From IMG/VR virus record IMGVR_UViG_3300043427_002950, positions 1 through 64,000 of that record: a stretch of DNA of 64,000 nt. The stretch is one strand, 5' to 3'. Shown here piece after piece: positions 8,308 to 63,633 of this stretch. Numbering within the stretch: the first letter of the stretch is position 1; the number at the start of each line of letters is the position of its first letter. Below the pieces are notes generated by a model. That model was given only the letters and a program-made list of their open reading frames with translations. It was not told where the DNA came from and ran no database searches. The stretch comes from an uncultured virus (IMG/VR IMGVR_UViG_3300043427_002950). Its lineage: Duplodnaviria; Heunggongvirae; Uroviricota; Caudoviricetes. The position numbers and the translations under genes were made by a program.

Positions 8308-8333
8308 TATAAAACTGAATAACTGATATAATT

Positions 8334-8360: not shown

Positions 8361-8483
8361 ATGTCTCATAATCCTCAACACGAACCTATGGAACCCTGGG
8401 TAATCTGGGCAGGAGTAGGTATGATGGTATTTACGATCCTTGTGTTTGTCCTGTTCACTCTCGGTCAGATTTATTGGGGATGA
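8361..8483 (+). CDS. Small single-TM protein (40 aa) between psbA and psbD
   Basis: MSHNPQHEPMEPWVIWAGVGMMVFTILVFVLFTLGQIYWG*. Confidence 0.55.
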   Translation: MSHNPQHEPMEPWVIWAGVGMMVFTILVFVLFTLGQIYWG

Positions 8484-8496
8484 GCACTAATACTCA

Positions 8497-8530
8497 TTGA
8501 CTTCTTTGTTAAGAAGTGTTAAGATAAATA
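8497..8530 (+). promoter_or_regulatory. psbD promoter with HLR1-like direct repeat
   Basis: TTGACT-17-TAAGAT; GTTAAGAA-gt-GTTAAGAT at 8508-8525; late-like GATAAATA. Confidence 0.6.
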
Positions 8531-8551
8531 CTGTAAATAAATGAGGAGGAT

Positions 8552-9613: not shown

Positions 9614-9622
9614 AATAAATAG

Positions 9623-9650
9623 AGGAGTTCCACAAGAACTCCTTTTTTTT
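9623..9650 (+). terminator. Intrinsic terminator after psbD
   Basis: AGGAGTTC-cacaa-GAACTCCT then T-run. Confidence 0.8.
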
Positions 9651-9754
9651 ATGCTTCTAATACTCGCAACTTTTATTGCTTTCGGGATTTTCATGTTTGT
9701 ATTGTCTATTGCACAAGACATATAATTATAATTATGTAAAACTTTTATATTTTT

Positions 9755-10645
9755 ATGAAACTCTGGATGTTATGTAATCGTCTCACAAAGGAAACTTATG
9801 AGAGAGATCGATTTATAGAAGAATCAAATAAATATGGTATCGATTTTTCTGTAGTTTATGCAGATGAATTGGATTTGATTGTATCGCGGGATGATCGTAA
9901 ATCAATTCGATATCTTAATGATGCTGTTGCTCTTCCTGATGTAGTTCTTGCTCGTACTGGAAGTAGTACTGGATATTATAATCTTTCCGTGCTTCGTCAG
10001 TTTGAAAGGTTGAATGTCCCTACACTTCCCAATTCAAATTCGATTGAAGCTGCAAAGGATAAGATGTATGCTATGCAAATTTTTGGGCAGGCGGGTCTTC
10101 CCATTCCCAAAACAATGCTTACTCGGTTTCCAAGTAATAGTGACTTAGTTGAAAAGCAAGTAGGTTTTCCCTGCGTTATGAAAGTTGTCACGGGATCTCA
10201 CGGTGCTGGAGTTTATCTTTGTGAAAATGCAAAGCAATTTGAAGATCTTTCAGAACTTATTTCATCAATAGATTTTAAAAGTTCCATGATTGTTCAAGAA
10301 TATATTGATCAATCGAAGGGACGAGATATTCGTGTGATTGTTGTAGGTGGTAGGGTTATTGGTGCGATGCAAAGGAAATCAGTTGATGGATCTTTTAAAG
10401 CAAATATATCCAGAGGTGGAGTTGGTGAAGGTATTGAAGTAGATGATCAGATGGAACTTTTGGCAATTCAAGTTGCTAAGGTTCTTGATCTTGATATTGC
10501 TGGTGTTGATCTTTTATTTCATGAGGATGGTTATAAAATTTGTGAGGCAAACTCTGCTCCAGGGTTTAAAGGATTTGAAGAAGCACTTGAGATCAATGTT
10601 CCTCAAAAGATTTTTGATTATGCGAAGCTTAGATCAAAGGAATAA
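9755..10645 (+). CDS. rimK: RimK-family ATP-grasp ligase
   Basis: AKDKMYA, GSHGAGV, QEYI..GRDIRVIVVG, FKANISRGG, AGVDLL, CEANSAPGF. Confidence 0.88.
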   Translation: MKLWMLCNRLTKETYERDRFIEESNKYGIDFSVVYADELDLIVSRDDRKSIRYLNDAVALPDVVLARTGSSTGYYNLSVLRQFERLNVPTLPNSNSIEAAKDKMYAMQIFGQAGLPIPKTMLTRFPSNSDLVEKQVGFPCVMKVVTGSHGAGVYLCENAKQFEDLSELISSIDFKSSMIVQEYIDQSKGRDIRVIVVGGRVIGAMQRKSVDGSFKANISRGGVGEGIEVDDQMELLAIQVAKVLDLDIAGVDLLFHEDGYKICEANSAPGFKGFEEALEINVPQKIFDYAKLRSKE

Positions 10646-25575: not shown

Positions 25576-25761
25576 ATGTCTCATATGGATTTGGAAAATT
25601 ATTATAGATTAAATTTTGCCTTAATCCAATTCCATAAATATTCTTTGACTGAAATAGAAAATATGATGCCTTGGGAAAGAGACATCTATGTTATGATGTT
25701 AGAAGAGCATCTTGAAGAAGAAGAATTAAAACGCAAGACAGCAAACAAAAATGGATTCTAA
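25576..25761 (+). CDS. gp51: Baseplate hub assembly catalyst gp51-like (possibly a -1 frameshift extension of gp26)
   Basis: NFALIQFHKYSLTEIENMMPWERDIY. Confidence 0.8.
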   Translation: MSHMDLENYYRLNFALIQFHKYSLTEIENMMPWERDIYVMMLEEHLEEEELKRKTANKNGF

Positions 25762-46806: not shown

Positions 46807-46971
46807 ATGCAAGTGGATAGAGAAGTCAGCAATGATCTTGTCGCAATGCAAGAAGACGTAGCAGCACACTTCACACAGGAAAATTTCCCTCTAAGTGGTG
46901 AAGCATACTGGACTATGGTAGAATGCATTGCACATGCAAAGCTGAAACAAATTCAAGGTTTTATTGACTGA
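46807..46971 (+). CDS. Hypothetical protein
   Basis: MQVDREVSNDL..SGEAYWTMVEC..; start downstream of the promoter. Confidence 0.65.
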   Translation: MQVDREVSNDLVAMQEDVAAHFTQENFPLSGEAYWTMVECIAHAKLKQIQGFID

Positions 46972-47163
46972 ATGAATTACAAAGAACTTAAAGAAATCCC
47001 AACAAAGACAACTCCAGAAAATGTAAGAGAAGCAAACGAAGCATTATTCAATTGCAAAATGACTCTTCCTGCTGCAGCAAAACATTGCGGTATGACTCAA
47101 AAAGAAATGAAATTAACTTTCTTTGAATACTTGAAGTATAATCCTCCCACTTACTCAAGTTGA
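46972..47163 (+). CDS. Hypothetical protein, HTH-like
   Basis: MTLPAAAKHCGMTQKEMKLTF. Confidence 0.65.
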   Translation: MNYKELKEIPTKTTPENVREANEALFNCKMTLPAAAKHCGMTQKEMKLTFFEYLKYNPPTYSS

Positions 47164-47192
47164 ATTTAAATACTCGGTTTCCGAGTATTCTT

Positions 47193-47268
47193 GCTCCTTT
47201 AGCTATCTGGTGAAAGCACCCGACTCATAATCGGTATCAGGTGGGTTCGATCCCCTCAAGGAGCACCA
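47193..47268 (+). tRNA. tRNA with CAT anticodon (Met or Ile2), CCA encoded
   Basis: GCTCCTT/AAGGAGC acceptor stem, CT-CAT-AA loop, GTTCGAT T-loop. Confidence 0.88.
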
Positions 47269-47349
47269 GCCCCTGTGGTGAAACGGTAAACACAGTTGAC
47301 TCAAAATCAACCGCCTACGGGTTTGTCAGTTCAAATCTGACTAGGGGCA
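47269..47349 (+). tRNA. tRNA-Leu(CAA)
   Basis: GCCCCT/AGGGGC acceptor, GTTGA-CTCAAAA-TCAAC anticodon arm, long variable arm. Confidence 0.88.
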
Positions 47350-47350
47350 C

Positions 47351-47379
47351 TTGACAATCAAAGCAAGACCTGCTATGAT
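47351..47379 (+). promoter_or_regulatory. Sigma70-type promoter inside the tRNA cluster
   Basis: TTGACA-17-TATGAT. Confidence 0.75.
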
Positions 47380-47396
47380 TGTCATATACGAGAAAT

Positions 47397-47468
47397 GCTT
47401 CTGTCGCCTATAGGTTAAGGCCCTCTGCTTATAACGGAGTGAACGGGGTTCAAGTCCCTGCAGAAGCA
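47397..47468 (+). tRNA. tRNA-Ile(TAT)
   Basis: GCTTCTG/CAGAAGC acceptor, CTCTG-CTTATAA-CGGAG anticodon arm, GTTCAAG T-loop. Confidence 0.85.
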
Positions 47469-47472
47469 CCTC

Positions 47473-47555
47473 GGGACGGTGGTGGAATCGGTAGACACAC
47501 CAGACTTAAAATCTGTCGGGCATTGCCTGTGGGGGTTCAAGTCCCCCTCGTCCTA
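47473..47555 (+). tRNA. tRNA-Leu(TAA)
   Basis: GGGACGG/TCGTCCT acceptor, CAGA-CTTAAAA-TCTG, long variable arm. Confidence 0.88.
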
Positions 47556-47556
47556 C

Positions 47557-47564
47557 TATAAATA
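47557..47564 (+). promoter_or_regulatory. T4 late promoter
   Basis: TATAAATA upstream of the 47589 ORF. Confidence 0.6.
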
Positions 47565-47588
47565 CTTAAAATAAGATCCAAGAATCTT

Positions 47589-47873
47589 ATGATATACCGA
47601 GTAAGTACTTGTTTTTGCTGGTATGATCCACAAGAACCTGGATCAAAAAAATACGTTGTTAAAATGTATTTTATTGAAAACTATCCTTATACATTCGATG
47701 ATATTCCAGAAATCTCTCTTTGGGATCCAACTTTAGAGATGGAAGCTAATAAATATAAAGTATTCACACCACATGATCTTTATATGTCTTCTTCATATTT
47801 AATAGCAGAAGAAGCACACCCATGTTTATTTCCAATTGAAGTTGATTACCCAGACCTCGTTCCAAAAGATTGA
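47589..47873 (+). CDS. Hypothetical protein
   Basis: 94-aa ORF with VKMYFI..PYTFDD and SSYLIAEEAHP. Confidence 0.7.
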   Translation: MIYRVSTCFCWYDPQEPGSKKYVVKMYFIENYPYTFDDIPEISLWDPTLEMEANKYKVFTPHDLYMSSSYLIAEEAHPCLFPIEVDYPDLVPKD

Positions 47874-47877
47874 GGAC

Positions 47878-47906
47878 TTGACAAAAAACCACAAGTGTCT
47901 TATAGT
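47878..47906 (+). promoter_or_regulatory. Sigma70-type promoter
   Basis: TTGACA-17-TATAGT. Confidence 0.75.
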
Positions 47907-47990
47907 ATACAAGTAACTGAGAAATCGGTTGCAATCTCCTAAGACAAAGGGGGAGTACAAAAGGTCCAGTTTATACGGACGCCCCCAATT

Positions 47991-48065
47991 GCCTCTTTAG
48001 CTCAGTGGTAGAGCAACGGTTTTGTAAACCGTTGGTCATCGGTTCAAATCCGATAGGGGGCTCCA
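47991..48065 (+). tRNA. tRNA-Thr(TGT), CCA encoded
   Basis: Cloverleaf, ACGGT-TTTGTAA-ACCGT anticodon arm. Confidence 0.92.
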
Positions 48066-48142
<77 letters not shown>

Positions 48143-48159
48143 ATAAAATCTATCATCAA

Positions 48160-48318
48160 ATGAAAATTAATCTCTGGCACTGTAAAGATATGAACTTGTG
48201 GAGATGGTCTCTTGTTGATGATAGAAGACCAATCTGTAAACAAGAAACTGGGCAAAGAGAAGATCTTAGATTAGCAATGCAAGACATTGCTGACACCGTA
48301 GAGTATTTAATAAAATAA
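48160..48318 (+). CDS. Hypothetical protein
   Basis: MKINLWHCKDMNLWRWSL..; start placed after tRNA-Pro. Confidence 0.65.
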   Translation: MKINLWHCKDMNLWRWSLVDDRRPICKQETGQREDLRLAMQDIADTVEYLIK

Positions 48319-48381
48319 AAAATAAATTTCTATTTTGTTTTCGACTAAATAATCAGTAACGAAAACAAGTACGTTAATAAA

Positions 48382-51300
48382 ATGGGTCTCTCTAGATTAA
48401 GCAATTTTCTGAAGAATGTAAAGGGAAATATCATTTATGTAGATCCAAATAGTTTAGACTCTACAGATAGTGTAGAAAATCAGGGCAATTCTTTAACTAG
48501 ACCCTTTAAAACTATCCAAAGGGCACTTCTTGAGGCAGCTAGATTTTCTTATCAAAGAGGAAAGAAAAACGATAGATTTTTAAAAACTACAATCTTGTTA
48601 TATCCAGGAGATCATTATATTGATAACAGGCCAGGATATATACCAACTGGATCAAGTTTATTTTCTACCAGAAGTGGATTGGTAAATATCAATGCAAGTT
48701 TAGAGTTAGATTTTGAAAGTAATTTTGATATTTTAGATTCAGTAAATGATCTCTATAAATTTAACAGTGTTTATGGTGGAGTTATTGTACCAAGAGGTAC
48801 ATCTATTGTGGGATTAGATCTTAGAAAAACTAAAATTCGTCCCCTATATGTTCCAAATCCAGAAAATAATGAGATTGAAAGAACTGCTCTTTTCAGAGTA
48901 ACTGGTGGTTGTTATTTTTGGCAGTTTACTGTTTTAGATGGAGATCCTAATGGATTAATTTTTTCGGATTATACTGGAAATCAAACTGTACCAAACTTCT
49001 CTCACCACAAATTAACAGTATTTGAATATGCGGATGGAATAAATTCGGTTAAAATTGAAGATGACTTTTTAACATATTCTACAGATCGAACTGATCTACA
49101 AATGTATTATGAAAAAATTGGATTAGGATATGGCGCAGGTAGAACAATATCCCCAGACTATCCATCAGATGTTGATATTGAACCAGTTGTTGATGAATTC
49201 CGAGTGGTTGGTTCTAGAGGATCTGAAGTAGGAATAAGTCAAATAAGATCTGGAAATGGAATAGTAGGAACAACTGAAATTACTGTTACTTTAGATAGAG
49301 AAGTAAATGAATTAAGTGTAGATACTGCTATACAAATTAGTGGAGTTACTGAGCCTGGTTATAATGGACAATATGCTGTTTCTGAAGTTGTAGATAATCA
49401 AACATTTAAATATATTGTTGCAACAGTACCAGAGCAAATAAACCCCAATGCATCAAATGCAAGAGTAAGTATTACTGTAGATACTGTAAGTTCAGCATCT
49501 CCATATATTTTTAACTGTTCTCTTAGATCAGTATATGGAATGTGTGGATTACATGCCGATGGAAAAAATGCCACAGGATTCCAAAGCATGGTTGTTGCAC
49601 AGTTCACTGGAATTGGACTTCAAAAAGATGATAGAGCTTTCGTAAGATATGATAAAGCACAGGGAATTTATATTTCAAATGAACCAAATGGACATACAAA
49701 TTCCTTATCTAGATTTAAACCTTCATATGAAAACTATCACATTAAAGCATCTAATAATGCTTTCTTACAGTTAGTTTCTGTATTTGCTATTGGTTTTGCA
49801 AATCATTTCTTAGCAGAATCTGGTGGTGATCATTCAATTACAAACTCAAACTCCAACTTTGGAGCCAAATCTTTAGTCTCAAACGGATTTAGAGATTCAT
49901 CTTTCATAAGAGATGATTGCGGTTATATTACTCATATTGTAGCACCAAAAGAAATAGATTCTGAAGAGCAAACTCTTGAGTATGTTCCTATAGACGTTCA
50001 ATTAACTCGTACAATCAACAACGCATCTAGATTGTATATTTACAATGAGAATGATATCAATAGCCCACCAGATTATATTTTAAATGGATATAGATTTGGT
50101 GCTTCAAAAAATGAAAAATTATACCTTCAAATAAATGATCCTTCATCTGGTCTGGGTATTTTCACCGCAGACGTTGTTATGGGTGATACTCAAAGTACTA
50201 CTGCCAATCCAGATCTTTTCAATATTGTTGCAGAAAAAACATACAGAGTAGGACAAAGCAATGTTGGCATCAATTCTATCGTAAATAATACAATAGAATT
50301 TATTTCTGAACATTCATTTAGACCAGGAGAATCTGTTACATTAGTGCCAAAGAGTGGATCACTTCCAGATGGCATTTCCCCTGGAAAAACTTATTATGTA
50401 ATTAATGACTCATTAAGAACTATCAAATTATCATCAAATCAACAAGATGCTATTAATGGTGCTGAGCAAGTAGTCTTTAATAATAAAGGTGGAATAATAG
50501 ATGTTATTAGTAGAGTTACAGACAAAAAACCAAATGATCCTGGAAGTCCATTAAAATTTGACTCATCTGCTGTTGTATCTTTAGGAGGAAAAACAGCTGG
50601 GTGGTATATTTTATGTAATCCATTGACTAACACAGTCTTTACTAAATATCAGTCCTTATATCCATCTGGACCATTCCCAGAAGTAGTTTCTTCCAGAACT
50701 TTTATAAAAAGAACTCCAGATAAAAGGTCTAATGATGATAAAATTTATAAATTTAGATATGTTCTTCCAAAAGACAGTACATTTACTTCTAGACCTCCTT
50801 TGGATGGATATATTTTACAAGATTCATCATCAACAAATGCATCAGATGTTGTAGAATTATCAAAATATTTTCCACAAGCATCGGTAACTTTGACAAACCC
50901 CACTGAATTAAGAAATCTTAGATATATTTCAAATGCAGTTTGGGTATCTAACACTGTTACAGTCACGACCGAACTCCCCCACAACTTAAACGAAGGTTCT
51001 CAAGTTTCAATTTATAATATTATTACCGACAACAATCCTGAAGGAGAATTTAATAAAGGATATAATGGAACATTTGAAGTAATTGATGTAAGTAGTTCTA
51101 GAGAATTTTCTTATCTTTTGCCAGTTAATCCTGGGTTATTTGATAACAATATTAATACAAGAGATCCAGAATCTTTACCAAGATATGTAAATAGAAAATT
51201 AAAAAATACATATCAAATTTTTAGAAGTGAAGAAATACAACCTTATGAAAAAGACAGGCAAGATGGAATTTATCATATAACCTTAACAAATTCTTCCAAT

Positions 51301-54300
51301 TCACCTTCAGTATCTCCATTTACTGAGTTATCATTCTCTCAACCAATTCAAAATCTTTACCCACAATTAAATAGAGATAATCCAAATTCAGACCCAACTG
51401 AATCTTTCTGTTATGCATTGCCAGATCCTATCGGACAAGTTTCAATAAATGATCCCCAGAATAGCATAACAAAAGAAACACTTTATAAAAATCTACAAGA
51501 CCTTAAATTTGGGTTTGACATTTTCGATATCGGTTCTTCCTCTGGAACTTCACACACAATTTATACATCAAGAGAGCATAATTTAAATTCTATTCTAGAA
51601 GTATCAATTACCAATTCTGGACAAAATTATGTTCCTGGAACATATTATAATATTTCTTTAGTTGGATTCGCTGGTTCAACTACGGGAACAAAGGCAACAG
51701 CAATTGTTAATATTAATGCAAGTGGGGTTGTAAATTCTGTTACTATATTAGATGGCGGAAGTGCATACGGAATAGGAAACACATTATCTGCTGTAGGATT
51801 ATCTACAGGTGCATCATGGACAAATTCAAATTCAGCATTGTTTACGGTATCAAATATTAATAATTCGCAAGGAATTGTAATTAATGTTTCGTCAGTAAAA
51901 TCAGTATCAAAAACTTATGATCAATATAATGGTAATTATATTGTTACTTCTGTTAAAACTGGATTCCCCAAACAAATTGAAGTGGAATCCCAAAAAACTT
52001 TAACTCAAGTTTTACCTTCAATTGGAGATGCATCTGATAATGCCATTGGAAATATTTCTGGAACTGCGTTAAATGTAAATTCGATCTCTTATGATCGAAT
52101 TAGTGGTGTAGGAACTGTTGGTTTTACTACAACACATCCATTTAAATCTGGATCAACAATATCACTTTATGGAGCTACTAATAGTTTTTATAATGATAAA
52201 AACTTTGTTGTAACTAGAGTTAATAGTCAATTAAGTGTAAGAATTAATGTAGGAAAATCAAATTCTTCACAATCGACTAGTGGAACTATTAAAGCAATTC
52301 CAGTAAATTATGCTGCAAGTGGAGGGGATATTAATTTAAGAGATGAATACTCATCTGGAAGATTGAAGTATATTTATGATAAATTTACTGGATATGTAGG
52401 TACTCAACTTAATAACACTTCCAGTGACTCCACTCCTCTTGTTTTATATAACTCAACTTTAATTAGTGAATTAAAACTTGGCGATTATTTATTGGTTAAC
52501 AATGAGATAATGAGAATATCTCAAAGAGTTACAAGTAATAGTATTAGTGTTATTAGAGCTTTACTTGGAACTAAAAGAGAAACTCATCAAAGGAATTCTA
52601 CAGTTCAAAAAATTAAAGTATTCCCAATCGAGTTTAGAAGAAATTCAATTATTCGTGCATCTGGACATACTTTTGAATATCTTGGATTTGGTCCAGGTAA
52701 TTATTCAACTGCATTGCCCGAAAGACAAGATAGAGTATTAAGTCCTCAAGAAGTAATATTGTCCCAATCCACCAAAATTGATGGAGGAACTATCTTATAT
52801 TCAGCAATGAATAGTGATGGAGATTTTTATAATAATAACAGAAAATTAACAAGTACTGGAAAGGATCAGATTTTTGAGTCTCCTATCCCAACAGTAACTG
52901 GAGAAGAACCTCTAGAATTAACTTCTGAAGGTGGATATAATATAACTACACCAGAAGAAATTGTTGTAAACAGATCTATTAAAGTTAATGGAGGAAAAGA
53001 ATCAAATCTTATTTCCGAATTTAATGGTCCAACAATATTTAATGAGAAGATAACTTCCACTTCAGAGAATGGATTAGAATTGAGAAAACTGAATATTAGA
53101 GGTGATTTGGATATTTCCAGAGAAATTGGAATATCGACAACAAGACCAACAACTGCAGCAAACGTTGGAGATAGAGTTTTAAATGCACTTCCTCAGATTG
53201 GAGGTAATGTTGGGTGGGTATATGCCACAGATCCTACAGATAATCAAATAAAATGGCAAGAATATGGATGGATAAATGACAGTTTGTATGGCGTTGATGT
53301 AACATCCTCTGCATTAGTTGATGCTGAATTAACCAGAATTCTTAGATTTGAATCTGGCAATAATGTAAACATTACGCAGCAATATAATGAATCAACGGGA
53401 ATAACAACAGTTACATTTGCATTAACTCAAGGAGCTGCCAACAAAGTAGGTATTGTTACTGGAAACGATTTTGGTGAATATTTTCCAACTCTCACTCCAT
53501 CTGGCGCTCCAGCATTTGCAACTAAAGAGGTTATTAACTTTGTTGGTTCATCTTTAGGATTTGGTGTTAAAGTTATTTCGGAATATGGACAGGACCTAAA
53601 CTCTGTTGGTATTGCAACCATTAAATTCCAATCACCCGTTTTCCCAATTAATTTTGGTACTGGCACAGAACTTCCTGGAACAGCTCCAAATCAGGGACTT
53701 GGGGATCCAATTTTTGCAGTTAGAAGTAATGGAACAAGAATAATCTATGACCAAAAATTAACTTCAAGTGCTACAAACTATGCCGTAGGAAGAAATAATA
53801 ATGTTTTATGGTGGAGTGTTCCTCAAAATGTCAATAGTTTCGGATATATATGGTATGCAGGAATAAACAGAGTTGCAGATTTAATAGTAGGTTCTGCAAC
53901 TACAACATTTAATGTATACGGTGGAATTGTAGCAAGAGATGTTGTCGAATCTACAAGATTTAGATCTACTGTTAATGATGGATCAACACCACCCTTTACA
54001 GTTTCTAGTAGTGTTTTAGTTTCTAATTTAAATGCTTCAAGAGTTCAGGGAGAACAACCTGAAGATTTAAATACTAATGCGTCTATTCCATCCAGAATTA
54101 CAAATGCATCTAATCAGGTATATATTGCTGGAATTTCTACTGGATTACTAGATGGTCCTGGCGATGGAACTGGAACAGGAAGACCAGGATCTTTCTACAC
54201 AAATATACCCGCAAGATTGGGGTATAATCCTTTCAATAAGGCAGGAGATCAGGTAACTGGCATTTCCACATTCTTCCAAATCTCCGATGTTGTTAATACA

Positions 54301-54672
54301 ACATCCAGCACAGTTTCAAACGTAATATCAGTTTCATTTGCTAATGGACCAATATTCAGAGTGGATGGAACGATAGGTTCTGTTGATACCCTAAATATAA
54401 CATCAGTTCCAACTACTCCAAATAGAACATACAACTATACTGTCGTTCTTAATGTAAGTGGGACTAGCAATTTGATAACAAAACTTCAAATAAATTCGAC
54501 CATCATTCCAGCATCAAACTTGAGATGGCTGAACGGAAATATACCTCCTACTTCAGTAAGTGTTTCAGATTCTTATATTATAGGATTTACTTTCTTCTGT
54601 GATGCTTCTGGATCATTTACATCAAGTTCTTCTTATGTTTTGGGAGTATACGGTCAGTATTCTACATCATAA
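48382..54672 (+). CDS. Large virion structural / tail-fibre-like protein
   Basis: 2096 aa; MGLSRLSNFLKN, RPFKTIQRALLEAARFSY, PRGTSIVGLDLRKTKIRP beta-helix-like region; repeated beta modules. Confidence 0.75.
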   Translation: MGLSRLSNFLKNVKGNIIYVDPNSLDSTDSVENQGNSLTRPFKTIQRALLEAARFSYQRGKKNDRFLKTTILLYPGDHYIDNRPGYIPTGSSLFSTRSGLVNINASLELDFESNFDILDSVNDLYKFNSVYGGVIVPRGTSIVGLDLRKTKIRPLYVPNPENNEIERTALFRVTGGCYFWQFTVLDGDPNGLIFSDYTGNQTVPNFSHHKLTVFEYADGINSVKIEDDFLTYSTDRTDLQMYYEKIGLGYGAGRTISPDYPSDVDIEPVVDEFRVVGSRGSEVGISQIRSGNGIVGTTEITVTLDREVNELSVDTAIQISGVTEPGYNGQYAVSEVVDNQTFKYIVATVPEQINPNASNARVSITVDTVSSASPYIFNCSLRSVYGMCGLHADGKNATGFQSMVVAQFTGIGLQKDDRAFVRYDKAQGIYISNEPNGHTNSLSRFKPSYENYHIKASNNAFLQLVSVFAIGFANHFLAESGGDHSITNSNSNFGAKSLVSNGFRDSSFIRDDCGYITHIVAPKEIDSEEQTLEYVPIDVQLTRTINNASRLYIYNENDINSPPDYILNGYRFGASKNEKLYLQINDPSSGLGIFTADVVMGDTQSTTANPDLFNIVAEKTYRVGQSNVGINSIVNNTIEFISEHSFRPGESVTLVPKSGSLPDGISPGKTYYVINDSLRTIKLSSNQQDAINGAEQVVFNNKGGIIDVISRVTDKKPNDPGSPLKFDSSAVVSLGGKTAGWYILCNPLTNTVFTKYQSLYPSGPFPEVVSSRTFIKRTPDKRSNDDKIYKFRYVLPKDSTFTSRPPLDGYILQDSSSTNASDVVELSKYFPQASVTLTNPTELRNLRYISNAVWVSNTVTVTTELPHNLNEGSQVSIYNIITDNNPEGEFNKGYNGTFEVIDVSSSREFSYLLPVNPGLFDNNINTRDPESLPRYVNRKLKNTYQIFRSEEIQPYEKDRQDGIYHITLTNSSNSPSVSPFTELSFSQPIQNLYPQLNRDNPNSDPTESFCYALPDPIGQVSINDPQNSITKETLYKNLQDLKFGFDIFDIGSSSGTSHTIYTSREHNLNSILEVSITNSGQNYVPGTYYNISLVGFAGSTTGTKATAIVNINASGVVNSVTILDGGSAYGIGNTLSAVGLSTGASWTNSNSALFTVSNINNSQGIVINVSSVKSVSKTYDQYNGNYIVTSVKTGFPKQIEVESQKTLTQVLPSIGDASDNAIGNISGTALNVNSISYDRISGVGTVGFTTTHPFKSGSTISLYGATNSFYNDKNFVVTRVNSQLSVRINVGKSNSSQSTSGTIKAIPVNYAASGGDINLRDEYSSGRLKYIYDKFTGYVGTQLNNTSSDSTPLVLYNSTLISELKLGDYLLVNNEIMRISQRVTSNSISVIRALLGTKRETHQRNSTVQKIKVFPIEFRRNSIIRASGHTFEYLGFGPGNYSTALPERQDRVLSPQEVILSQSTKIDGGTILYSAMNSDGDFYNNNRKLTSTGKDQIFESPIPTVTGEEPLELTSEGGYNITTPEEIVVNRSIKVNGGKESNLISEFNGPTIFNEKITSTSENGLELRKLNIRGDLDISREIGISTTRPTTAANVGDRVLNALPQIGGNVGWVYATDPTDNQIKWQEYGWINDSLYGVDVTSSALVDAELTRILRFESGNNVNITQQYNESTGITTVTFALTQGAANKVGIVTGNDFGEYFPTLTPSGAPAFATKEVINFVGSSLGFGVKVISEYGQDLNSVGIATIKFQSPVFPINFGTGTELPGTAPNQGLGDPIFAVRSNGTRIIYDQKLTSSATNYAVGRNNNVLWWSVPQNVNSFGYIWYAGINRVADLIVGSATTTFNVYGGIVARDVVESTRFRSTVNDGSTPPFTVSSSVLVSNLNASRVQGEQPEDLNTNASIPSRITNASNQVYIAGISTGLLDGPGDGTGTGRPGSFYTNIPARLGYNPFNKAGDQVTGISTFFQISDVVNTTSSTVSNVISVSFANGPIFRVDGTIGSVDTLNITSVPTTPNRTYNYTVVLNVSGTSNLITKLQINSTIIPASNLRWLNGNIPPTSVSVSDSYIIGFTFFCDASGSFTSSSSYVLGVYGQYSTS

Positions 54673-54708: not shown

Positions 54709-57700
54709 ATGGCCTTTTACGGTTCTTCTGTTGCCAATTTATCACCTATTTTATTCAGAGGAAATTTATTTTCTGAAGGAGTAAACATAGTATTTTTTAC
54801 TGATGTTTCCTATTCAATGAATTTGGATTCCTCTGGAGTTAGTAATTATACTAGTCCCAGAACTAGTCCAGGTGGAAATATTTCAGTAGGATCAACTGTT
54901 TCTATGTTTTATGATGGAATATTTCCATCAACTCTTCAGAATGACTTATATACATTAAAAGTAGGAGCTCAGTTTCAATCATCACCAAATTTATATACGT
55001 ATATTGATCAAACATTTAGATCAAAATCTTTTACACAATCTTTAACTCTAAACACGGAAACTACGACTTTTCCAAATCATTTTATTGTAGCCGATTCAAA
55101 TTATTTCAACGAAAGAAGTTTTAAAAACCTTTGGAAAAATCAATATATTAATAGTGATGAGGGCGTTTTTAACCTTGGATCATTAAGATATAATATAGCA
55201 TCAAAAGTTTCAAGTGAGTCAACAGCAACAAGATTTAGTTCGTTTGATACTATAGATAATCCAGGACAGTATAGTGAAGACGTTCACGGAAATATTTGGT
55301 CTTTTTATTATAGTGGATCCAATAATGCTTCTGTTAATAATATAACAGAAGGATCTGTAAATACTTCATATATTGGTCAATTTTTAAATACTCCAATTAG
55401 AAGAAATTTACCGACATATGTAATTGCTGCATCTAATGAACAAGAAAATACCGCTTCAAATTTAATAGGTATTGGAATATCTACTAAAAATAATGTTGGT
55501 TATACAACTGACAAATATAAATACAATTCCTCTGGATTTTATGTTAGAAGATATAGAGGATATTTTTTAGACGATCCAGATTCTCCAGATCCAGAGTCTT
55601 CTATTGAAAGTTGGTTTACTAATAAAGCTATTCCACTTCCATTAGGTAATACTACAACTGGAGAATTTGAAGACGCTCCAGGTATGAACTGGTTTATTAA
55701 TGGAACTCCCAATTCAACAGCAACTGCAGCAGCTGATTTGGGAGGTCAACCCAAAATCATTTATGAAGGATATACTGGAGGAGGAACTGCTGTTCTTAAT
55801 ACAGATCCATCTTATGCAGGTATTGAAATTCCAAATTCTCAGATAACACCAGCAACCCAAAATTTAAGTTCTACGATTCAAAAGGGTGGATTTTGGGGAC
55901 CAATTTTTGAAATTGATCGATTAAGATCTGATATATCCAATTATACTATAATGATAGTTGGATACTTTGCTCCTCAGATATCGGGATCATTCACCTTTAG
56001 AATTCAATCAACTGGAACTAGCTGTTTTTGGATTGGATCCGATGCAACAGGAATTGACGGATTTGGTCCAGATTCTAAAGTTTATAGTGGATATACAGTA
56101 TCAAATTCTACAATTACTTGCCCAGATAACTCTGGCACAAGAGATAATTTACTACAGAATCCAGATAGTGATTTAAATGATGTTTTTTCGGTCACATCTG
56201 CTAATTTAAACTTTACTTCAGGAAGATATTATCCATTCAGATTAATATTAGGCAATCCCAATGTTGGAACAAATAACTTTACTCCTGACGGAAGTTTAAA
56301 TTTTAGTACTTCTTTAATAAATCCAAGTTTTGTTAGATTATTATTTGACGTTAATTCTGCTTCTGGAACTGGATCTAAAGAAAATTCTTACGTTCTTAAC
56401 GGATCTGGATATTTCTTTGGAGGACGGGAAGTTTGGGAAGAAGGATCTTTATTCTTTAGACCACCAATTCAAACAGTAACAAGAACGATAGAAGAAGAAG
56501 TACAATATAGAAATCTTAGAGTTATCGGAATTAGTGGATATGAATCCAATGATGGATATGATGCCGTATTTGTAAAAAAGGCAGGGCAAGAATACATATA
56601 TGCAAATCTATCAAAATATTCCTATACTTTTACAACATCACAAAATCCACCTTCTACTTGGAGATTCGCAAATTATTTTAAATCAATAGAGTATTCAATA
56701 ACTGATTCCACTTCTGGATTTACAAGACAAAACAATACGGTTACTGAAGATACAACTGTTGGAACTGGAGCATCTTTTAAAATTGATAAATTAAACGATA
56801 GATACATCATACAAGTGAGACCAGGATTTGCTGGAACTGATTACAGAATTGGAGATAAATTTACAATTTCTGCATCTTCTTTGGGAGAAGATAATATAGA
56901 AAATAATCTTGTAGTTGGAATTACAAGTGTGCAACCTTTAGAATATACTGTAACTGCTTTATTGAGTGATAATTTTGCAGAAAGAACGACTACAAATGCC
57001 ACATTTACTGTAAGAAAAAATGAATTCAATAATAATAATTATTCCTTAACTTTACTTAATGGTGGAACAAATTATGAAAATGGGGATAAATTATTAATAT
57101 CTGGAACGGAATTGGATGGAACATCGGCAAATAATATAACAATTACAGTAACTAATGTATTGTCGGGTGGTATAATAGATACTTATTCGGTATCGGGAAC
57201 GCCCACAAATTACATAGACTATCAAGTACCTTTAAATGCATATTATCCAAAAACTGCAACTTTTTCATATGAACCTATTGATATAAGTTCAGTATATTAT
57301 AGAAAAGGAACTAGTTTAGGAATAGGGTACACAACTGCAAGAATTACTGGTATTGCATATACAACTGGAAATATAATAGGATTAGCTCAAAGTTCATTTA
57401 ATATTTCTGGAATTGCATATACTAATATCACTTCTAGCACTACGGGTATTGCATACTCTACCTCCAATATAGTTGGAATAGGATATACTATACTTTCTGT
57501 TACAGGAGCTGGATTCACCCATGGAAATGTTGCAGGAATTGCTTACACGACATCTACGATTACAAATATTGGATTTACAAGTACTAGTGTAGTAAGTATT
57601 GGATATACTGCACCAAACATTGTAAGTATTGGATATACAGCATTTGCAATTTCCTTTATTACATATCCAGATGCATATACTATAGTTGAGTATGATCCAG

Positions 57701-60700
57701 CAAATGATCAATGTCTTATTACTCTCAATCCTTCAGGTGCAGCATTACCTGGAAATATTGGGATTGGGGGAAAAGTTCTTGTAGCAGGAACTGGAGAACC
57801 TGCTTTAGATAATCAAAGTCTTTCTATTATTAATGTATTGAGTGATTATGAGATAGAAGTTTCTGCTCCAGGTCTTGGTGCAGGGCCAGTACAGAATCCT
57901 TTACCTGCAAAATTAATTATTACTCAATTGGATAATGGGGTTAATAATAATGTTGGACTTGGTTCTGATGCATTATTACAAACATCAGCAGATCATACTT
58001 TTATAACTGGAGATTCTATAATTATAAGAGGAACAACAGATTCAGATTGGAATTCAACTTTTACTGTAAAATCTGTAGAAAGTCCAACTCAAATTAAAAT
58101 TGATAATACTGGAAGAACTGAATTATTTGCAGCAACGACTATAGGATCTGGGTCAACTGTAGGATATAACCAATCAGAATTGGAATTAGTAGTACCAGTA
58201 ACATTCAGAAATGTTGGAATTACAAGTATTGCTTATAATTTAAGAGAAGTATCTCCAGATAATGTAAATCCATATTTACTTAATTCATCACAAGGTTTTA
58301 ATCAATTTAATAATAACGGAGTAACTGCTAGTTATTTAGTTACAATTTTAGGGAATGGTTCAGGTTTAAATCTTGATAATTATTTACAAAATGGTGATAT
58401 TGTTTATATTTTTGGTACTGGAACTGTGTTTGATTATACAAATACGGGATATGGACTTACAGTTACAAGTGTACAAGATGCTGGCATTGGTCAAGATAGA
58501 TTTTCTTTTGAATTTGCAAGTCAAGGTGGAAGTGTTGCTTTTGGAAATGCGTCTGGAAGTTATTACATAGTCAACAAATTAATTCCAATTGTAGACGCAC
58601 CTTCTCATGGATTTAGCAATGGACAATTAGTTTCAATAAGTGGAAATGAAAATAGTGTCTATAATAAAATTTGGCAAGTAGCACAGGCAGGAATTAATAC
58701 TTTTAGACTTGCCGATTCTGTAACTGGCATTGTATCTACAGCAGCAGATTTAATTACAAATTTTGGAAATACTTTTAATCTTTCTGGCACTGCTTCTCAG
58801 TCAATTACTGAATATAAATTGTCAGTTGGAATGGCAATTACAGTATTTGGAGTCACTGGAGAATCAGCAATTTATAACGATGCATATGTAATTTCTGGAA
58901 TTAAATCTTCATTTACGGAACCTTATGCATTTATTCTTAAAGAAAATCAAACGCCATCGACACTTGCTTTACAGGGTTCTTCTGGCAAAATAGGCATTCA
59001 TACAATTTCTGGAATTGCTACGGTAACATCTACGTCTTCTTTTGGATCAGTAGGAAGTTTAATTTCTATAAAAATTCAAGATTCTCCATCTTCGTTCTTC
59101 AATAAAACATATACAAACGCAAGAATTCTAGATAGTACAAGAATTCTTCTCGGTTCTGATAGTTTTAGAAATCAAACTACACCAAATCCAAATGAATATG
59201 TAAGTTCTTCAAATGCAAATTCTAATACAATAGTTGGATTGGTTGGAGATTCATTGAAAGTAACTCATGGAACAATAACTCCATCTGGATATACTTTTGT
59301 CAATGGAGCATCAATTGACATTTATGGTACTACTAATTTTAATGGAACATATACTATTAATAATGTAAATGGAAATATACTTAGTTTAAATTCTACATCA
59401 AATAGCTCTACTAATTTTGCATTACGTGATACATCTGGAGGAATAGGTGTTAGAGGAATAGGTCCAGTTATATCATTTACGAATAGTTATTCTTTCCCGT
59501 CTCCGTATTTTGGACCCAATGGATCAAACATTCAAGTTAAATTGCAAGACACTGGAAAAACTGCATTAAACACGAATACGGCAAGAAATGCCAGAGTTAT
59601 ATCTCCAACAAGTATATTATTGACAGATAATGGACTCAATCCTGCAGACTATAGTAATCCAGGAGCTGGGGGAACAATTGGTTTAATTGGTGCAAATTAT
59701 TATATTACTGTAAGTTCTGGAGCAAATTCTATTCCTGTTGGATCAACTGTTGGAATACAAAATGTTTTAGATCAAAATGGAAATGCTTTAATTGCAGACA
59801 ATTTATTTACAATTCAATCAAATTTTGGAAACGATACAGGTCTCATTGCAATTCCATCAAGTTCGTCATCATCAACTTCCAGTACAAACTTTGGTCTTAG
59901 AGGAAACAGTGGTATTCTTGGATTGAGAGCAAATGCTGTTGTAACTACAAGTTCAAATCATCCTTTTATTAATGGAGATTCTGTTCAAATTGAAAATACA
60001 ACTGGAAATTTAGGAATATTTAATAATACATTCACAATAACTTACGTTTCTCCAACTCAATTTATATTAAACAGTACGAATTCGACTCAATACACTGATG
60101 ATTTTACGAATGCAAATGCAACGGGAGGAATTGCTGGATTGGAAAATTATCCAGCAACTGTCACATCAACAAATCATCCCTTTACAACAGATCAAAGTGT
60201 TCAAATAGAAGGAACTGCTAATTTTAATGGTTCTTATACAATTACAAAAATAGATAATGATAGATTTACTCTTAATGGTAAAACAAACCCAACTAGTTAC
60301 ACAGAAATATCGAATTCCACAATTGATCCAAATGGATTAATTACATTAAAAAATGCTGGACCAACAGTTACATATAATGGAACTCCAAGAGTTGTGGGAG
60401 GGACTGATGTAGACTTCAAAACTGGAGATCAAGTACGAATTCAAAATTCAACCACATTTAATGGAACTTATACTGTTAAAAGATATACTAGCACAACTTT
60501 TGGAATTACACGTACCGATCCAGTATCATTTACTGGAATTAATGAAGGTTCTGGATCAATTGCTGGATTAGTTGGATCTAGTGTAAGAATTAGAACAGGC
60601 ACCGCACATGGTTTAATCGATGGGCAATCAATAAAAATTCAAAATACTTCAACAGGATTTGATAATAAACTATATACTGTTACTACAGTAGACGCAAATT

Positions 60701-63633
60701 TATTTAATATTAGTAATACCGTAAGTACTGCTTCTACAAACTTTACAATAACATCCACTGTTGGATTGGTTGGTTATCAAAATTATCCAGCAATAGCAAC
60801 ATTTTCAAATATAATTCCAAGTTCTTTTGCAGTTGGTTCTCAAATTGATATTGTAAATAATGATGGAACTGATACAGCATCTTCCCAACAATTATCTCTT
60901 CCTGGTCCATATACAATTGCTTGGAGGACTGATACTGGAGGATTAACAAGAGTAGGTCTTCAAGAAGCAATCAATCCTTCTAATTATTCTACTGTTGAGA
61001 ATAATTCTGGTCTTGGTTATACTGCTGGACTTAGAAATTCTCCAGCAATAATTAGATTTAATTCTATAGAATTTTCAAATTTAACATTTGATCTTCCATT
61101 AATATTTGGGGATATTATATCAATTAATATCACTGGAACTGATAATTTTGATGGAGATTATAATGCAAAATATACTTCTTCAAATAGTTTAGAATTAATA
61201 TCACCATCAACAATAAATCCAAATGATTATTCTCCAAATGGAGATGTAAATGGAGTAGTTGGATTAGCAAATTCTGATAGAATTGTTCGTGTAAATGGAG
61301 GGCATGGATTTACTGCTGCAAATGTCGGTACAACTCAGGTGGATATTATAACTGGAAATATTACTTTGCAGAGTGATTTTGGAGGAACTTACTTTATTTC
61401 AGAAATATTAGACACTGAAAATTTTGCACTTTCTGGAACACAAAATCCTTCTGGATCTATTTCTTATACAACTATAGATACTGAAGGATATTATGTCATT
61501 TTTGATAGAGGTCCAATAGTTACGTCAACATTTTCTTTCGATGGATCTTTTGTATATCAGCAACATTTATTGGATCAAGGAGATGGAGTTACAATTACTA
61601 ATTCTTCACTTTCTGGATTTAATGGGAATAGGACAGTATTAAATGCACCAACTTCTACAGTATTTAGAATGAATGGCCCATATCCATCTCCAATTACATT
61701 GAATGGTAGGCCAGATTATAAGATTTCTGGAACTTTACTTTATAATCAAAGAATAGGTCTTTCAAATGGAAATAGTAATGCCGCTGCTTCTTTAATAATT
61801 CGTAGGAATGCAACTGGCATAACTTCTAGTTATACAATTCAATCAATAGTTTCCACTGGTTCAAATTATAAAACAAATGAACTTTATCTAATTCCTGGGT
61901 CAAATCTTGGTGGAACAACTGGAACTCGTAATGATGCATTAGTAAAAATTGGATCTGTTGATGTAAATGGAGGAATTCAATCCACAAACTTATCAATTTT
62001 AAGACAAACATCTAATCCCACAATCTCTGTTCCAGATTCAAGTCTCGATTATGAATCTGCAAAAACAGCTTCTATTATAACTGGAACAGGTTCTGGATCT
62101 CAATTCAGAATTGTTAGAGGGGGAATAAGAACTGCTGGGGTTACAACTTATTCTACAGTTGAGTTATTAAGTGGTGGATCTTTATATAATGTAAATGATG
62201 TTATTAGAATACCTGGAAATCTTCTTGGGGGACAATCTGGAGATGGAACTACAAATACTCTTAGAAATGATCTTTTAATTTATATAGAACAAGTAATTTC
62301 TGGTGGAAGTATTTCTGGAACTGGATTTACATTTAGAGGAATATCAAGAGATAGTGCCCCATTGGTAAACTCTGGATTATCCACAATTTATTTGGATGGA
62401 GGAATTTCTAGAAGATCTAGGCCATTTGGATTAGAAAAAGTGTGGGATAATGTTAATGATTCTGGGCCACCACCAAATCAAGGGTTGTTAAGTCAAACTC
62501 ATGATATGCTTACATTGGCAGAAGCAAATAAAGGTGGCGTTGTTAAAATTGATAAAGTTTATACTTATGGAGACATTGAGAAGAAAGCAGAGATTCAAGA
62601 ACTATTTTTCTATAGCACTTCTTCTATAGGACATAGAGATTTGGCAGCAACAAACTTTGAAGCATCTATATTATATGATACGGGTGGAAAGAGTGGGATT
62701 GCTACAATTATATTTGATAATGATGCATTTGATCAATCCGTATTTTCAAATATTGTGGCCAATGACAACTTATATTTTATAACCTCAAGAAGAAGTAATC
62801 CAAATTTAGGTGTTCCATATTTAGATTATAGATTAATTAATAAATCATTGAATGTTATTCGTGCTAATACTAATTCTTCTACCGATAGTGGTTTTGATTT
62901 AGTTGACGAAGGTACACAACAATTCATCCCTCCATTTGCAACTAATAATCCTGGATTTGCTTTTGGAAGTAGAATAGATCAAATAGTTATTCAAACGGAT
63001 AACACAATAACTGCTTCTATTTCCGATGATCTTCCTTCTGGGTATAAAGCAATAATCATAAATGATAAATCAGTTTTGACCGTTAGATCTGATAATCATC
63101 CATTTGTAAACGGGGAAATAGTCACTATTAGATTAAATAGATTATTTAATACAACTACATACGTTGAAGAGGGAACTGGAATAGCATATACTTCTTATAG
63201 AGTAAGAAATGCCACAACTTTTTCATTCCAATTAGAGGATGTTTCCACAGGAATCGGGTTAACTCCATCAACAATTATGCCTAATGGCAAAAAATTAATT
63301 GATTATTTTGCTGAAGCATATGTTCCAAACACAAGCATTGCTTTATCTCCATGGACAACTGCAAATCGTTCAGAATTGTATGGAAATTCAAATACTTGGT
63401 CTAGGGTGGGATATCCAGTAATTTATGCTTCCGTTGATGTAGATGGAAATGCACCATCAACTGGAACTGGTGAGGGAGATATACAAAACGTAACTAGGTC
63501 ACTTTTAAGTATTGAGGGGGAAGCATATAAGTTGATTCCAGGTGGAAAAGATCCAGTCGATAACAGAGTTGGATTGGCAAAATTAATTGCTAAAGTTATA
63601 TCAGACGCAACTCAGCAAAAATCAAATCCATAA
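54709..63633 (+). CDS. Giant structural/adhesin-like protein (vWA-like + PA14-like + repeated beta modules)
   Basis: 2974 aa; VFFTDVSYSM (DxSxS); GYFAPQISGSFTFRI..GRYYPFRL (PA14/GLEYA-like); about 15 H.F..GD.V.I.G...FNG.YT modules. Confidence 0.65.
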   Translation: MAFYGSSVANLSPILFRGNLFSEGVNIVFFTDVSYSMNLDSSGVSNYTSPRTSPGGNISVGSTVSMFYDGIFPSTLQNDLYTLKVGAQFQSSPNLYTYIDQTFRSKSFTQSLTLNTETTTFPNHFIVADSNYFNERSFKNLWKNQYINSDEGVFNLGSLRYNIASKVSSESTATRFSSFDTIDNPGQYSEDVHGNIWSFYYSGSNNASVNNITEGSVNTSYIGQFLNTPIRRNLPTYVIAASNEQENTASNLIGIGISTKNNVGYTTDKYKYNSSGFYVRRYRGYFLDDPDSPDPESSIESWFTNKAIPLPLGNTTTGEFEDAPGMNWFINGTPNSTATAAADLGGQPKIIYEGYTGGGTAVLNTDPSYAGIEIPNSQITPATQNLSSTIQKGGFWGPIFEIDRLRSDISNYTIMIVGYFAPQISGSFTFRIQSTGTSCFWIGSDATGIDGFGPDSKVYSGYTVSNSTITCPDNSGTRDNLLQNPDSDLNDVFSVTSANLNFTSGRYYPFRLILGNPNVGTNNFTPDGSLNFSTSLINPSFVRLLFDVNSASGTGSKENSYVLNGSGYFFGGREVWEEGSLFFRPPIQTVTRTIEEEVQYRNLRVIGISGYESNDGYDAVFVKKAGQEYIYANLSKYSYTFTTSQNPPSTWRFANYFKSIEYSITDSTSGFTRQNNTVTEDTTVGTGASFKIDKLNDRYIIQVRPGFAGTDYRIGDKFTISASSLGEDNIENNLVVGITSVQPLEYTVTALLSDNFAERTTTNATFTVRKNEFNNNNYSLTLLNGGTNYENGDKLLISGTELDGTSANNITITVTNVLSGGIIDTYSVSGTPTNYIDYQVPLNAYYPKTATFSYEPIDISSVYYRKGTSLGIGYTTARITGIAYTTGNIIGLAQSSFNISGIAYTNITSSTTGIAYSTSNIVGIGYTILSVTGAGFTHGNVAGIAYTTSTITNIGFTSTSVVSIGYTAPNIVSIGYTAFAISFITYPDAYTIVEYDPANDQCLITLNPSGAALPGNIGIGGKVLVAGTGEPALDNQSLSIINVLSDYEIEVSAPGLGAGPVQNPLPAKLIITQLDNGVNNNVGLGSDALLQTSADHTFITGDSIIIRGTTDSDWNSTFTVKSVESPTQIKIDNTGRTELFAATTIGSGSTVGYNQSELELVVPVTFRNVGITSIAYNLREVSPDNVNPYLLNSSQGFNQFNNNGVTASYLVTILGNGSGLNLDNYLQNGDIVYIFGTGTVFDYTNTGYGLTVTSVQDAGIGQDRFSFEFASQGGSVAFGNASGSYYIVNKLIPIVDAPSHGFSNGQLVSISGNENSVYNKIWQVAQAGINTFRLADSVTGIVSTAADLITNFGNTFNLSGTASQSITEYKLSVGMAITVFGVTGESAIYNDAYVISGIKSSFTEPYAFILKENQTPSTLALQGSSGKIGIHTISGIATVTSTSSFGSVGSLISIKIQDSPSSFFNKTYTNARILDSTRILLGSDSFRNQTTPNPNEYVSSSNANSNTIVGLVGDSLKVTHGTITPSGYTFVNGASIDIYGTTNFNGTYTINNVNGNILSLNSTSNSSTNFALRDTSGGIGVRGIGPVISFTNSYSFPSPYFGPNGSNIQVKLQDTGKTALNTNTARNARVISPTSILLTDNGLNPADYSNPGAGGTIGLIGANYYITVSSGANSIPVGSTVGIQNVLDQNGNALIADNLFTIQSNFGNDTGLIAIPSSSSSSTSSTNFGLRGNSGILGLRANAVVTTSSNHPFINGDSVQIENTTGNLGIFNNTFTITYVSPTQFILNSTNSTQYTDDFTNANATGGIAGLENYPATVTSTNHPFTTDQSVQIEGTANFNGSYTITKIDNDRFTLNGKTNPTSYTEISNSTIDPNGLITLKNAGPTVTYNGTPRVVGGTDVDFKTGDQVRIQNSTTFNGTYTVKRYTSTTFGITRTDPVSFTGINEGSGSIAGLVGSSVRIRTGTAHGLIDGQSIKIQNTSTGFDNKLYTVTTVDANLFNISNTVSTASTNFTITSTVGLVGYQNYPAIATFSNIIPSSFAVGSQIDIVNNDGTDTASSQQLSLPGPYTIAWRTDTGGLTRVGLQEAINPSNYSTVENNSGLGYTAGLRNSPAIIRFNSIEFSNLTFDLPLIFGDIISINITGTDNFDGDYNAKYTSSNSLELISPSTINPNDYSPNGDVNGVVGLANSDRIVRVNGGHGFTAANVGTTQVDIITGNITLQSDFGGTYFISEILDTENFALSGTQNPSGSISYTTIDTEGYYVIFDRGPIVTSTFSFDGSFVYQQHLLDQGDGVTITNSSLSGFNGNRTVLNAPTSTVFRMNGPYPSPITLNGRPDYKISGTLLYNQRIGLSNGNSNAAASLIIRRNATGITSSYTIQSIVSTGSNYKTNELYLIPGSNLGGTTGTRNDALVKIGSVDVNGGIQSTNLSILRQTSNPTISVPDSSLDYESAKTASIITGTGSGSQFRIVRGGIRTAGVTTYSTVELLSGGSLYNVNDVIRIPGNLLGGQSGDGTTNTLRNDLLIYIEQVISGGSISGTGFTFRGISRDSAPLVNSGLSTIYLDGGISRRSRPFGLEKVWDNVNDSGPPPNQGLLSQTHDMLTLAEANKGGVVKIDKVYTYGDIEKKAEIQELFFYSTSSIGHRDLAATNFEASILYDTGGKSGIATIIFDNDAFDQSVFSNIVANDNLYFITSRRSNPNLGVPYLDYRLINKSLNVIRANTNSSTDSGFDLVDEGTQQFIPPFATNNPGFAFGSRIDQIVIQTDNTITASISDDLPSGYKAIIINDKSVLTVRSDNHPFVNGEIVTIRLNRLFNTTTYVEEGTGIAYTSYRVRNATTFSFQLEDVSTGIGLTPSTIMPNGKKLIDYFAEAYVPNTSIALSPWTTANRSELYGNSNTWSRVGYPVIYASVDVDGNAPSTGTGEGDIQNVTRSLLSIEGEAYKLIPGGKDPVDNRVGLAKLIAKVISDATQQKSNP

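Follow-up and report, generated by a model that had tools for sequence, protein, structure and literature searches.

How does a polypeptide chain fold when a run of short β-strands is followed by a comparable number of β-modules that all seem to lack their first strand? This question is raised by a 2974-residue protein encoded in a 64,000-nucleotide stretch of viral DNA (hereafter the window), taken from a virus record of 127,876 bases. A preliminary description of the sequence had suggested that each module is inserted into a loop of the previous one, such that the chain would run out as single strands and complete each domain on its way back. We followed up this proposal by comparing homologs and by inspecting structure models.

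Genomic setting of the 2974-residue protein

The window contains photosystem II D1/D2-family genes and a gene for a T4-type single-strand binding protein, as well as tail genes encoding a tail tube, a baseplate hub and tail lysins (Pfam, PHROGs). The combination of T4-like tail genes and photosystem genes argues for a T4-like myophage, probably of cyanobacteria, as the source virus. Both neighbours of the gene under study match PHROG tail-fibre families, and the gene order around it was kept in all three distinct loci examined (L001, L002 and L003), of which L001 encodes an identical protein. The protein itself did not match any family in PHROGs or NCBIfam, and tblastn against 50,697 GenBank phage records, a set that possibly does not include near-identical ones, returned no match to it. 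Pfam searches with the whole protein found GLEYA and PA14 as the only domains (Table 1).

Several other features of the region deserve mention. Two photosystem II reaction-centre genes are followed by a RimK-type ATP-grasp gene (7195-10645). A 2152-residue tail protein (31532-37990) carries five Pfam peptidoglycan-hydrolase matches (amidase_2, hydrolase_2, M23, M15 and phage lysozyme) and is preceded by a 1920-residue protein with a weak GH19-like match (25751-31513). Directly upstream of the tail-fibre cluster lie about 1.6 kb without an open reading frame of at least 100 residues (46808-48381). Downstream of the window, the record encodes two collagen-like Gly-X-Gln fibre genes (G000:C1:68562-71258 and 78983-83524).

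Table 1. Coordinates of the features discussed in the text; pairings of strands and bodies are those predicted by the models.
Feature	Window positions	Residues	Strand	Basis or remark
Neighbouring 2096-residue tail fibre protein, phrog_529	48382..54672		+	carries uninterrupted modules
2974-residue protein	54709..63633		+	list of open reading frames
GLEYA/PA14-type domain, outside the stalk	55942..56277	412-523	+	PF10528, E 3e-7, 31 bits, above cut-off
Candidate first strand of outer module	57214..57234	836-842	+	possible body at about 61747-62043, after the stalk
Block of 14 strand units of ten residues, numbered from S14 (outermost) to S1 (innermost)	57247..57669	847-987	+	periodicity, homologs
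Complete tip barrel M0	57673..57942	989-1078	+	structural alignment of window model
Body 1 (M1)	57964..58173		+	completed by S1 in both models
Body 2 (M4)	58174..59004		+	interrupted by the side branch after its second strand; partner S2 in homolog model
Optional side branch	58204..58800	1166-1364	+	200 residues, inside body 2
Bodies 3-14 (M5-M16)	59005..61746	1433-2346	+	69-85 residues each
Body 4	59242-59460		+	partner S4 in both models
Body 5	59461-59691		+	partner S5 in homolog model

Strands and bodies of the central region

The strand block consists of 14 consecutive units, which we numbered from the inside, S1 being closest to the modules. About 13 to 14 strands had been noticed before; the full count is 14, and the block begins roughly 25 bases upstream of the start given in the preliminary description. 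A typical unit follows the pattern hydrophobic, any, Gly/Ser, Ile, Gly/Ala, Tyr, Thr. Self-identity of the block is 0.32 at a lag of 10 residues and 0.28 at a lag of 20, and none of 10,000 shuffled sequences reached the observed lag-10 value (mean 0.10, maximum 0.215). Its 140 residues include 54 Thr, Ile or Val and only 3 Leu, 1 Glu and 2 Lys.

The strands are followed by a complete barrel, which we call the tip, and by 14 bodies (residues 1086-2346, window 57964-61746), each of which starts at the second strand of a complete module. The similar number of modules without a first strand that had been noticed after the strands is accounted for by these 14 bodies. Together with the tip and two barrels in the side branch, the protein contains 17 barrels; the earlier count of strands and modules is borne out, although it had not separated the tip and the two side-branch barrels. 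The tip is the least conserved segment of the protein, with a mean column conservation of 0.41 compared to 0.46-0.72 for the bodies.

For comparison, the neighbouring 2096-residue protein indeed carries the complete modules that had been quoted from it, with similar first strands at residues 849 and 1232 (window 50926 and 52075). We also searched the fronts of the bodies with a profile of first strands. In 13 of 14 cases the score was at most 2.2, with a background 95th percentile of 3.6, and the strand of the side branch scored 17.0. This test discriminates weakly: the profile also fails to recover genuine first strands, namely those of the tip (-6.0) and of three out of four modules of the neighbour.

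The side branch reproduces the design of the stalk with two levels. It comprises a stalk-type strand (residues 1171-1177), a complete barrel (1186-1291) and a body (1292-1364). We considered whether the stalk-type strand could be part of the inner barrel of the branch and rejected this, since that barrel is already complete from residue 1186; on the basis of the model, the strand was assigned to the outer body of the branch. The branch is present in 9 of 22 homologs, where the gap at this site measures 212-243 residues, compared to 15-24 in the others. Its presence or absence differs even among very close relatives (P0007 versus P0009 and P0003 versus P0004), always at the same loop, which resembles a swappable cassette.

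Strand and body numbers in homologs

The homolog search yielded 22 proteins, including that of the window, among 7989 candidates scored. Three and then one further full-length homolog were added to give 26; fragments were left out of the count, and no shorter homologs were found among 7986 scored candidates. Strand and body numbers agreed throughout: 19 proteins have 14 strands and 14 bodies, one has 16 of each and six have 12 of each, with no mismatch seen. This comparison had been proposed together with the nesting hypothesis, and the two numbers do move together at 12, 14 and 16. Within the first 22 homologs, the 19 proteins with 14 strands have a block of bodies 3-14 of 891-943 residues. 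The corresponding block measures 1108 residues in P0013, which has 16 strands, and 728 and 734 residues in P0021 and P0022, which have 12 strands each. P0023 to P0025 align to P0022 without module-sized gaps and were counted as 12/12, and P0026 was judged 12/12 by eye. Strand and body block lengths correlate with a Pearson r of 0.96 (n=22, rows not independent).

These numbers rest on landmarks, block lengths and alignments, because the strand profile alone undercounts (8-13 units per protein) and the body HMM misses some bodies. In P0017, 14 strand units are obtained when Met is allowed in the unit pattern. The homolog set used for the strand and body comparison has an effective depth of about 9.5. 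In a quick tree built on the last 620 residues, which also included two unrelated proteins (P0029 and P0035), the 12-level forms fall in two separate lineages. With the 12/12 state in two lineages and a single 16/16 protein, the data therefore represent three length events at most and not 26 independent observations. The side branch is an internal control for the co-variation: it adds two barrels, and the strand block stays unchanged because the branch brings its own strand.

Position of insertions and deletions

If strands and bodies pair in mirror order, levels that are lost or gained should affect the two blocks at mirrored positions. In a body-by-body alignment of P0021, body 3 runs straight to body 6, and bodies 4 and 5 are missing. 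Independently, and blind to the bodies, the strand units were scored with position-specific profiles built from the 19 proteins that have 14 strands. The best adjacent pair of missing strands was S5,S4 (rank 1 of 13), while the pair expected for the same order ranked 9th; the non-adjacent pair S6,S4 scored higher than S5,S4 (278.8 versus 276.4). P0013 revealed the opposite change. Its alignment shows a second copy of bodies 4 and 5, and its extra strands were mapped to units 10-11 (rank 1 of 15), with the three same-order pairs ranking 9th to 12th. In a power check of this mapping, for which close relatives were present in the profile, 209 of 247 artificial deletions were placed exactly and 241 within one unit. 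P0022 is too divergent for body mapping past the first three bodies, and its best adjacent strand pairs were S6,S5 and S5,S4. The outer 9 strands and the outer 9 bodies remain in step through these changes. At the level of sequence, the comparison of homologs demonstrates the strand and body counts, their co-variation and the mirror positions of the indels.

Every observed change in depth comprises two levels, and both mappable ones (P0013 and P0021) are located at levels 4 and 5. The structural repeat may be a pair of barrels, which three cases cannot establish.

Structure models

AlphaFold2 models were obtained for residues 885-2030 of the window protein and for residues 1020-1916 of a branch-less homolog encoded in L002. 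The alignments contained the fragment and the 19 fourteen-level proteins, and the three proteins of other depth were left out. Mean pLDDT was 67.5 and 70.2 for the window and homolog model, respectively, and overall confidence was low, with a pTM of 0.41 and 0.44. To deduce which strand pairs with which body, single solved barrels of 70-90 residues were aligned to the models, and the first and the last aligned residue were taken from each of the 50 alignments listed per model.

Among the 50 listed for the window model, seven reach from S1 through body 1 (model positions 93-271), including mouse FCCH 2v31 (Z 8.0, rmsd 2.2, 73 aligned), and nine reach from S4 through body 4. Four match the tip alone (human E1 FCCH 4p22, Z 9.0, rmsd 2.5, 78 aligned). 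The inner barrel of the branch is covered by 22, of which 19 lie at model positions 295/304-406/409 and three have an extension. Four alignments begin at S4 and stop some 60 residues inside body 5, and four are multi-domain with a high rmsd. In the homolog model, 28 of the 50 listed alignments span S1 and body 1 (81-272), two span S2 and body 2 (71-347/349), five span S4 and body 4 and two span S5 and body 5; six cover the tip alone, four run into the next body and three are multi-domain. The two alignments for S5 and body 5 are the top two for this model and are both with human UBA1 FCCH (Z 9.6 and 9.5, rmsd 2.2-2.4, 81-82 aligned). The first of them, UBA1 9mc4 (Z 9.6, rmsd 2.2, 82 aligned), extends over homolog model positions 37-594, about 557 residues. 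Since a domain of 82 residues is matched at 2.2 Å across 557 residues, it has to be discontinuous in the model.

An FCCH-like fold with the strands in mirror register is accordingly what the models predict, for levels 1 and 4 in the window protein and for levels 1, 2, 4 and 5 in the homolog. The anti-diagonal pairing that had been anticipated was found at these readable levels, whereas levels 3 and 6-14 were not placed; none of the 100 alignments listed for the two models covers level 3. Eight alignments, four per model, run from a strand to about 55-65 residues inside the next body. We read them as spill-over, the alternative being a shifted register. Searched as a whole with Foldseek, the models returned no fold-level match; TM values for the query were around or below 0.1, in line with expectation for long rods. 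Their top matches in BFVD included cyanophage baseplate and fibre proteins and one protein named as FCCH-containing.

Mirror-order complementation could also take place between the chains of a dimer or trimer, with the strands of one chain completing the bodies of its neighbour. Fibres of the T4 type are trimers and the gene lies between PHROG tail-fibre genes; moreover, co-variation of the counts would look identical in such an assembly. However, levels 1, 2, 4 and 5 come together within a single chain in the monomer models, and the side branch is a small-scale repetition of the design that is likewise confined to one chain. We regard pairing between chains as quite unlikely and favor a rod that is built from a single chain.

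The order of the strands declines outward in both models. Ordered strands near the tip were S4 to S1 in the window model and S5 to S1 in the homolog model, and S10 to S5 and S9 to S6, respectively, remained below a pLDDT of 50 despite the presence of their predicted partners in the construct. Strand partners of bodies 3-14 other than 4 and 5 were assigned by mirror order. Since the strands beyond the inner levels have a pLDDT below 50, levels 6-14 rest on comparative evidence, and we infer the pairing at levels 3 and 6-14. One may ask whether nesting stops after the inner four or five levels, with the outer strands forming a β-hairpin or solenoid of their own and the outer bodies being stable five-stranded barrels or borrowing a strand from a neighbour. 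AlphaFold2 did not place the outer strands, which appear as short, low-confidence strands in the window model, and the outer bodies were modelled at a pLDDT of about 50-80 without them, both of which would fit this arrangement. It is at odds with the match of the total counts at 12, 14 and 16 and with the outer 9 strands and bodies staying in step through indels. Likewise, unpaired strands reached a pLDDT of only 25-37 in both models and lacked secondary structure in the homolog model. Nesting confined to the inner levels is hence unlikely in our view, and we retain nesting over the whole length.

The preliminary description had named an independent solenoid followed by complete modules as the outcome that would contradict nesting. 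No such solenoid was predicted; the low pLDDT of the unpaired strands expresses low confidence and is not proof of absence. A repeat domain of the DotG/IcmE decapeptide or β-solenoid type, succeeded by a tandem array of complete barrels, receives some support from the family profile, which matches the Legionella IcmE/DotG repeats (E 1e-6, 28.7 bits), and 8 of the 11 matches listed carry repeats of this type. But the IcmE/DotG units are rich in Ala, Glu, Leu and Lys, unlike the Thr/Ile/Val-rich strand block, and the ordered units are strands inside barrels in the models. Independence would also leave the matched counts and the mirror indels unexplained, and we consider this arrangement highly improbable. 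A kinship with DotG/IcmE was rejected as well: what is shared is the period of 10 and a Gly-aromatic-Ser/Thr motif, and composition and modelled structure differ.

Proposed architecture

Taken together, the 14 repeats, the tip and the 14 modules likely fold as one self-nested rod. Insertion of each module into a loop of the previous one, as originally suggested, is supported by the matched counts, the mirror indels and the modelled pairings at levels 1, 2, 4 and 5. Each six-stranded FCCH-like barrel would sit, as a recursive insertion, in the turn that connects strand 1 to strand 2 of the next barrel outward. On its way out, the chain would contribute 14 successive first strands; it would then fold the complete tip barrel and return through the 14 bodies, with strand k, counted from the tip, completing body k. 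Neighbouring barrels would be tied by two passes of the chain, giving a stiff spacer. At a rise of about 0.33 nm per strand residue, 14 strands of 10 residues each would give it a length of no more than about 46 nm. Folding would begin at the tip and zip back inside-out.

Judging from the gene context, the rod is a putative virion appendage. It would hold the variable tip and the optional side branch away from a base with a PA14/GLEYA sugar-binding-type domain. With nesting, the rod would start and end at the same site, and it could therefore sit in a loop of another domain.

Long repeat proteins are usually built as beads on a string, and a 14-fold self-insertion would be a second route to a single-chain spacer. 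A self-nested rod, if true, would have two chain links per joint and both ends at the base. This raises the question of how folding proceeds when a first strand is synthesized up to 1500 residues ahead of its partner, how levels arise or vanish when two matched indels are required for every change, and why all three observed changes comprise two levels. The splitting of the domains would also explain why domain databases and phage annotation miss such proteins. Among the results listed by searches of the open-licence PubMed Central and bioRxiv literature, we found neither a description of this protein family or of nesting this deep, nor one of nested, recursive, telescopic or Russian-doll repeat rods.

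Flanking modules and N-terminal region

A second, different β-module occurs in four copies, two on each side of the stalk (window 56719-57243 and 61747-62358). Close to the C-terminus, an HMM match revealed a further barrel-like module, which is possibly split (window about 62956-63267). The candidate first strand in front of the strand block has an invariant I836 and Y838 in 19 of 19 aligned sequences. Judged by the sequence pattern, the strand and the body behind the stalk possibly form a 15th level, which would be the third of the four flanking copies.

Conserved motifs are also found at residues 32-36, 243-245, 604-609 and 2598-2614 (window 54781-54816, 55435-55443, 56518-56535 and 62500-62550), with D32, S34 and S36 being invariant in 19 of 19 sequences. 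The hallmark of vWA domains is an Asp-x-Ser-x-Ser motif after the first strand of a Rossmann-like fold, and the order of the conserved motifs is reminiscent of a split vWA domain. No library search of the 2974-residue protein returned a vWA family, and the N-terminal region had no match in the ESM Atlas. The vWA-like N-terminal part would be finished about 2000 residues later, and the lectin-type domain, the outer modules and the stalk would all be insertions.

Extended to the whole chain, this leads to an insertion hierarchy about 16 levels deep. A metal-binding vWA-like base (from residue 25 to about 2610) would enclose a lectin-type domain, the outer module and the 14-level rod with its nested branch, and evolution would tune the length of the rod in steps of two levels, through matched indels separated by 1.5-2 kb in the gene. 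We hold this extended reading only tentatively and give it slightly less than an even chance. If true, it would be a natural molecular ruler in which recursive insertion goes to a much greater depth than in Si3, whose structure is solved (see below), and a test object for folding, in which 140 residues await partners up to 1500 residues downstream.

Comparison with known systems

A chain that runs out and back and presents a variable tip far from its base is known from the D0-D3 domains of flagellin and hook proteins and from the stalk of the streptococcal antigen I/II. Flagellin consists of few, unlike domains and antigen I/II packs a helix against a polyproline stretch; neither is a recursive insertion of one barrel.

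The best single-domain structural matches of the models were FCCH and other six-stranded barrels, and 9jlf and 9n71 were among the matches of the two models. The likeness to the FCCH domain of E1 enzymes (PF16190; UBA1 4p22, 9mc4 and 2v31) lies in the six-stranded barrel, with Z 8.0-9.6, rmsd 2.2-2.6 and 73-82 aligned residues. FCCH is described as a six-stranded closed antiparallel barrel, and FCCH domains occur on phage tail tubes (PMC13576161). The protein scored below the PF16190 cut-off of 29.5 (best 21.9 bits, E 2e-4, and also 19.9), and its relatives P0003 and P0024 carry a precomputed PF16190 match. In the ESM Atlas, all matches stayed below 0.9; among the named clusters, E1_FCCH came closest with 0.83. 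With GLEYA and PA14 as its only Pfam domains, the protein is not a ubiquitin-activating E1 enzyme. The unit is FCCH-like, short of the Pfam cut-off. Unlike the FCCH cases compared, which are single and contiguous, 15 of the 17 copies in the phage protein are split.

The closest system is Si3 of the cyanobacterial RNA polymerase β' subunit (PDB 8EMB). Its eight SBHM repeats are not a simple tandem array, SBHM-2 to -5 being built from distant parts of the sequence (PMC10895346), and its boundaries are fin 424-478 and 884-973, body 478-619 and 729-884, and head 619-729 (PMC10120043). Both Si3 and the phage rod, as predicted, are elongated, loop-inserted arrays in which the chain runs out and back. 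Building in mirror order, as in Si3, is predicted for levels 1, 2, 4 and 5 of the rod and agrees with the mirror indels. With regard to the sandwich-barrel hybrid motif, 8emb appeared at a Foldseek E of 0.037 with a TM of 0.05-0.09. The phage protein has no polymerase domain and is encoded among tail genes, and is thus not, like Si3, an insertion in the trigger loop of RNA polymerase. Si3 has eight SBHM repeats, four of them discontinuous, over about 150 Å within an enzyme of solved structure. In contrast, the phage rod is predicted to have 14 levels with a strictly regular block of one strand per level; its unit would be an FCCH-like barrel, its number of levels varies, and it carries a side branch. 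In topology, the predicted rod works as Si3 does, and it stands outside the Si3 family.
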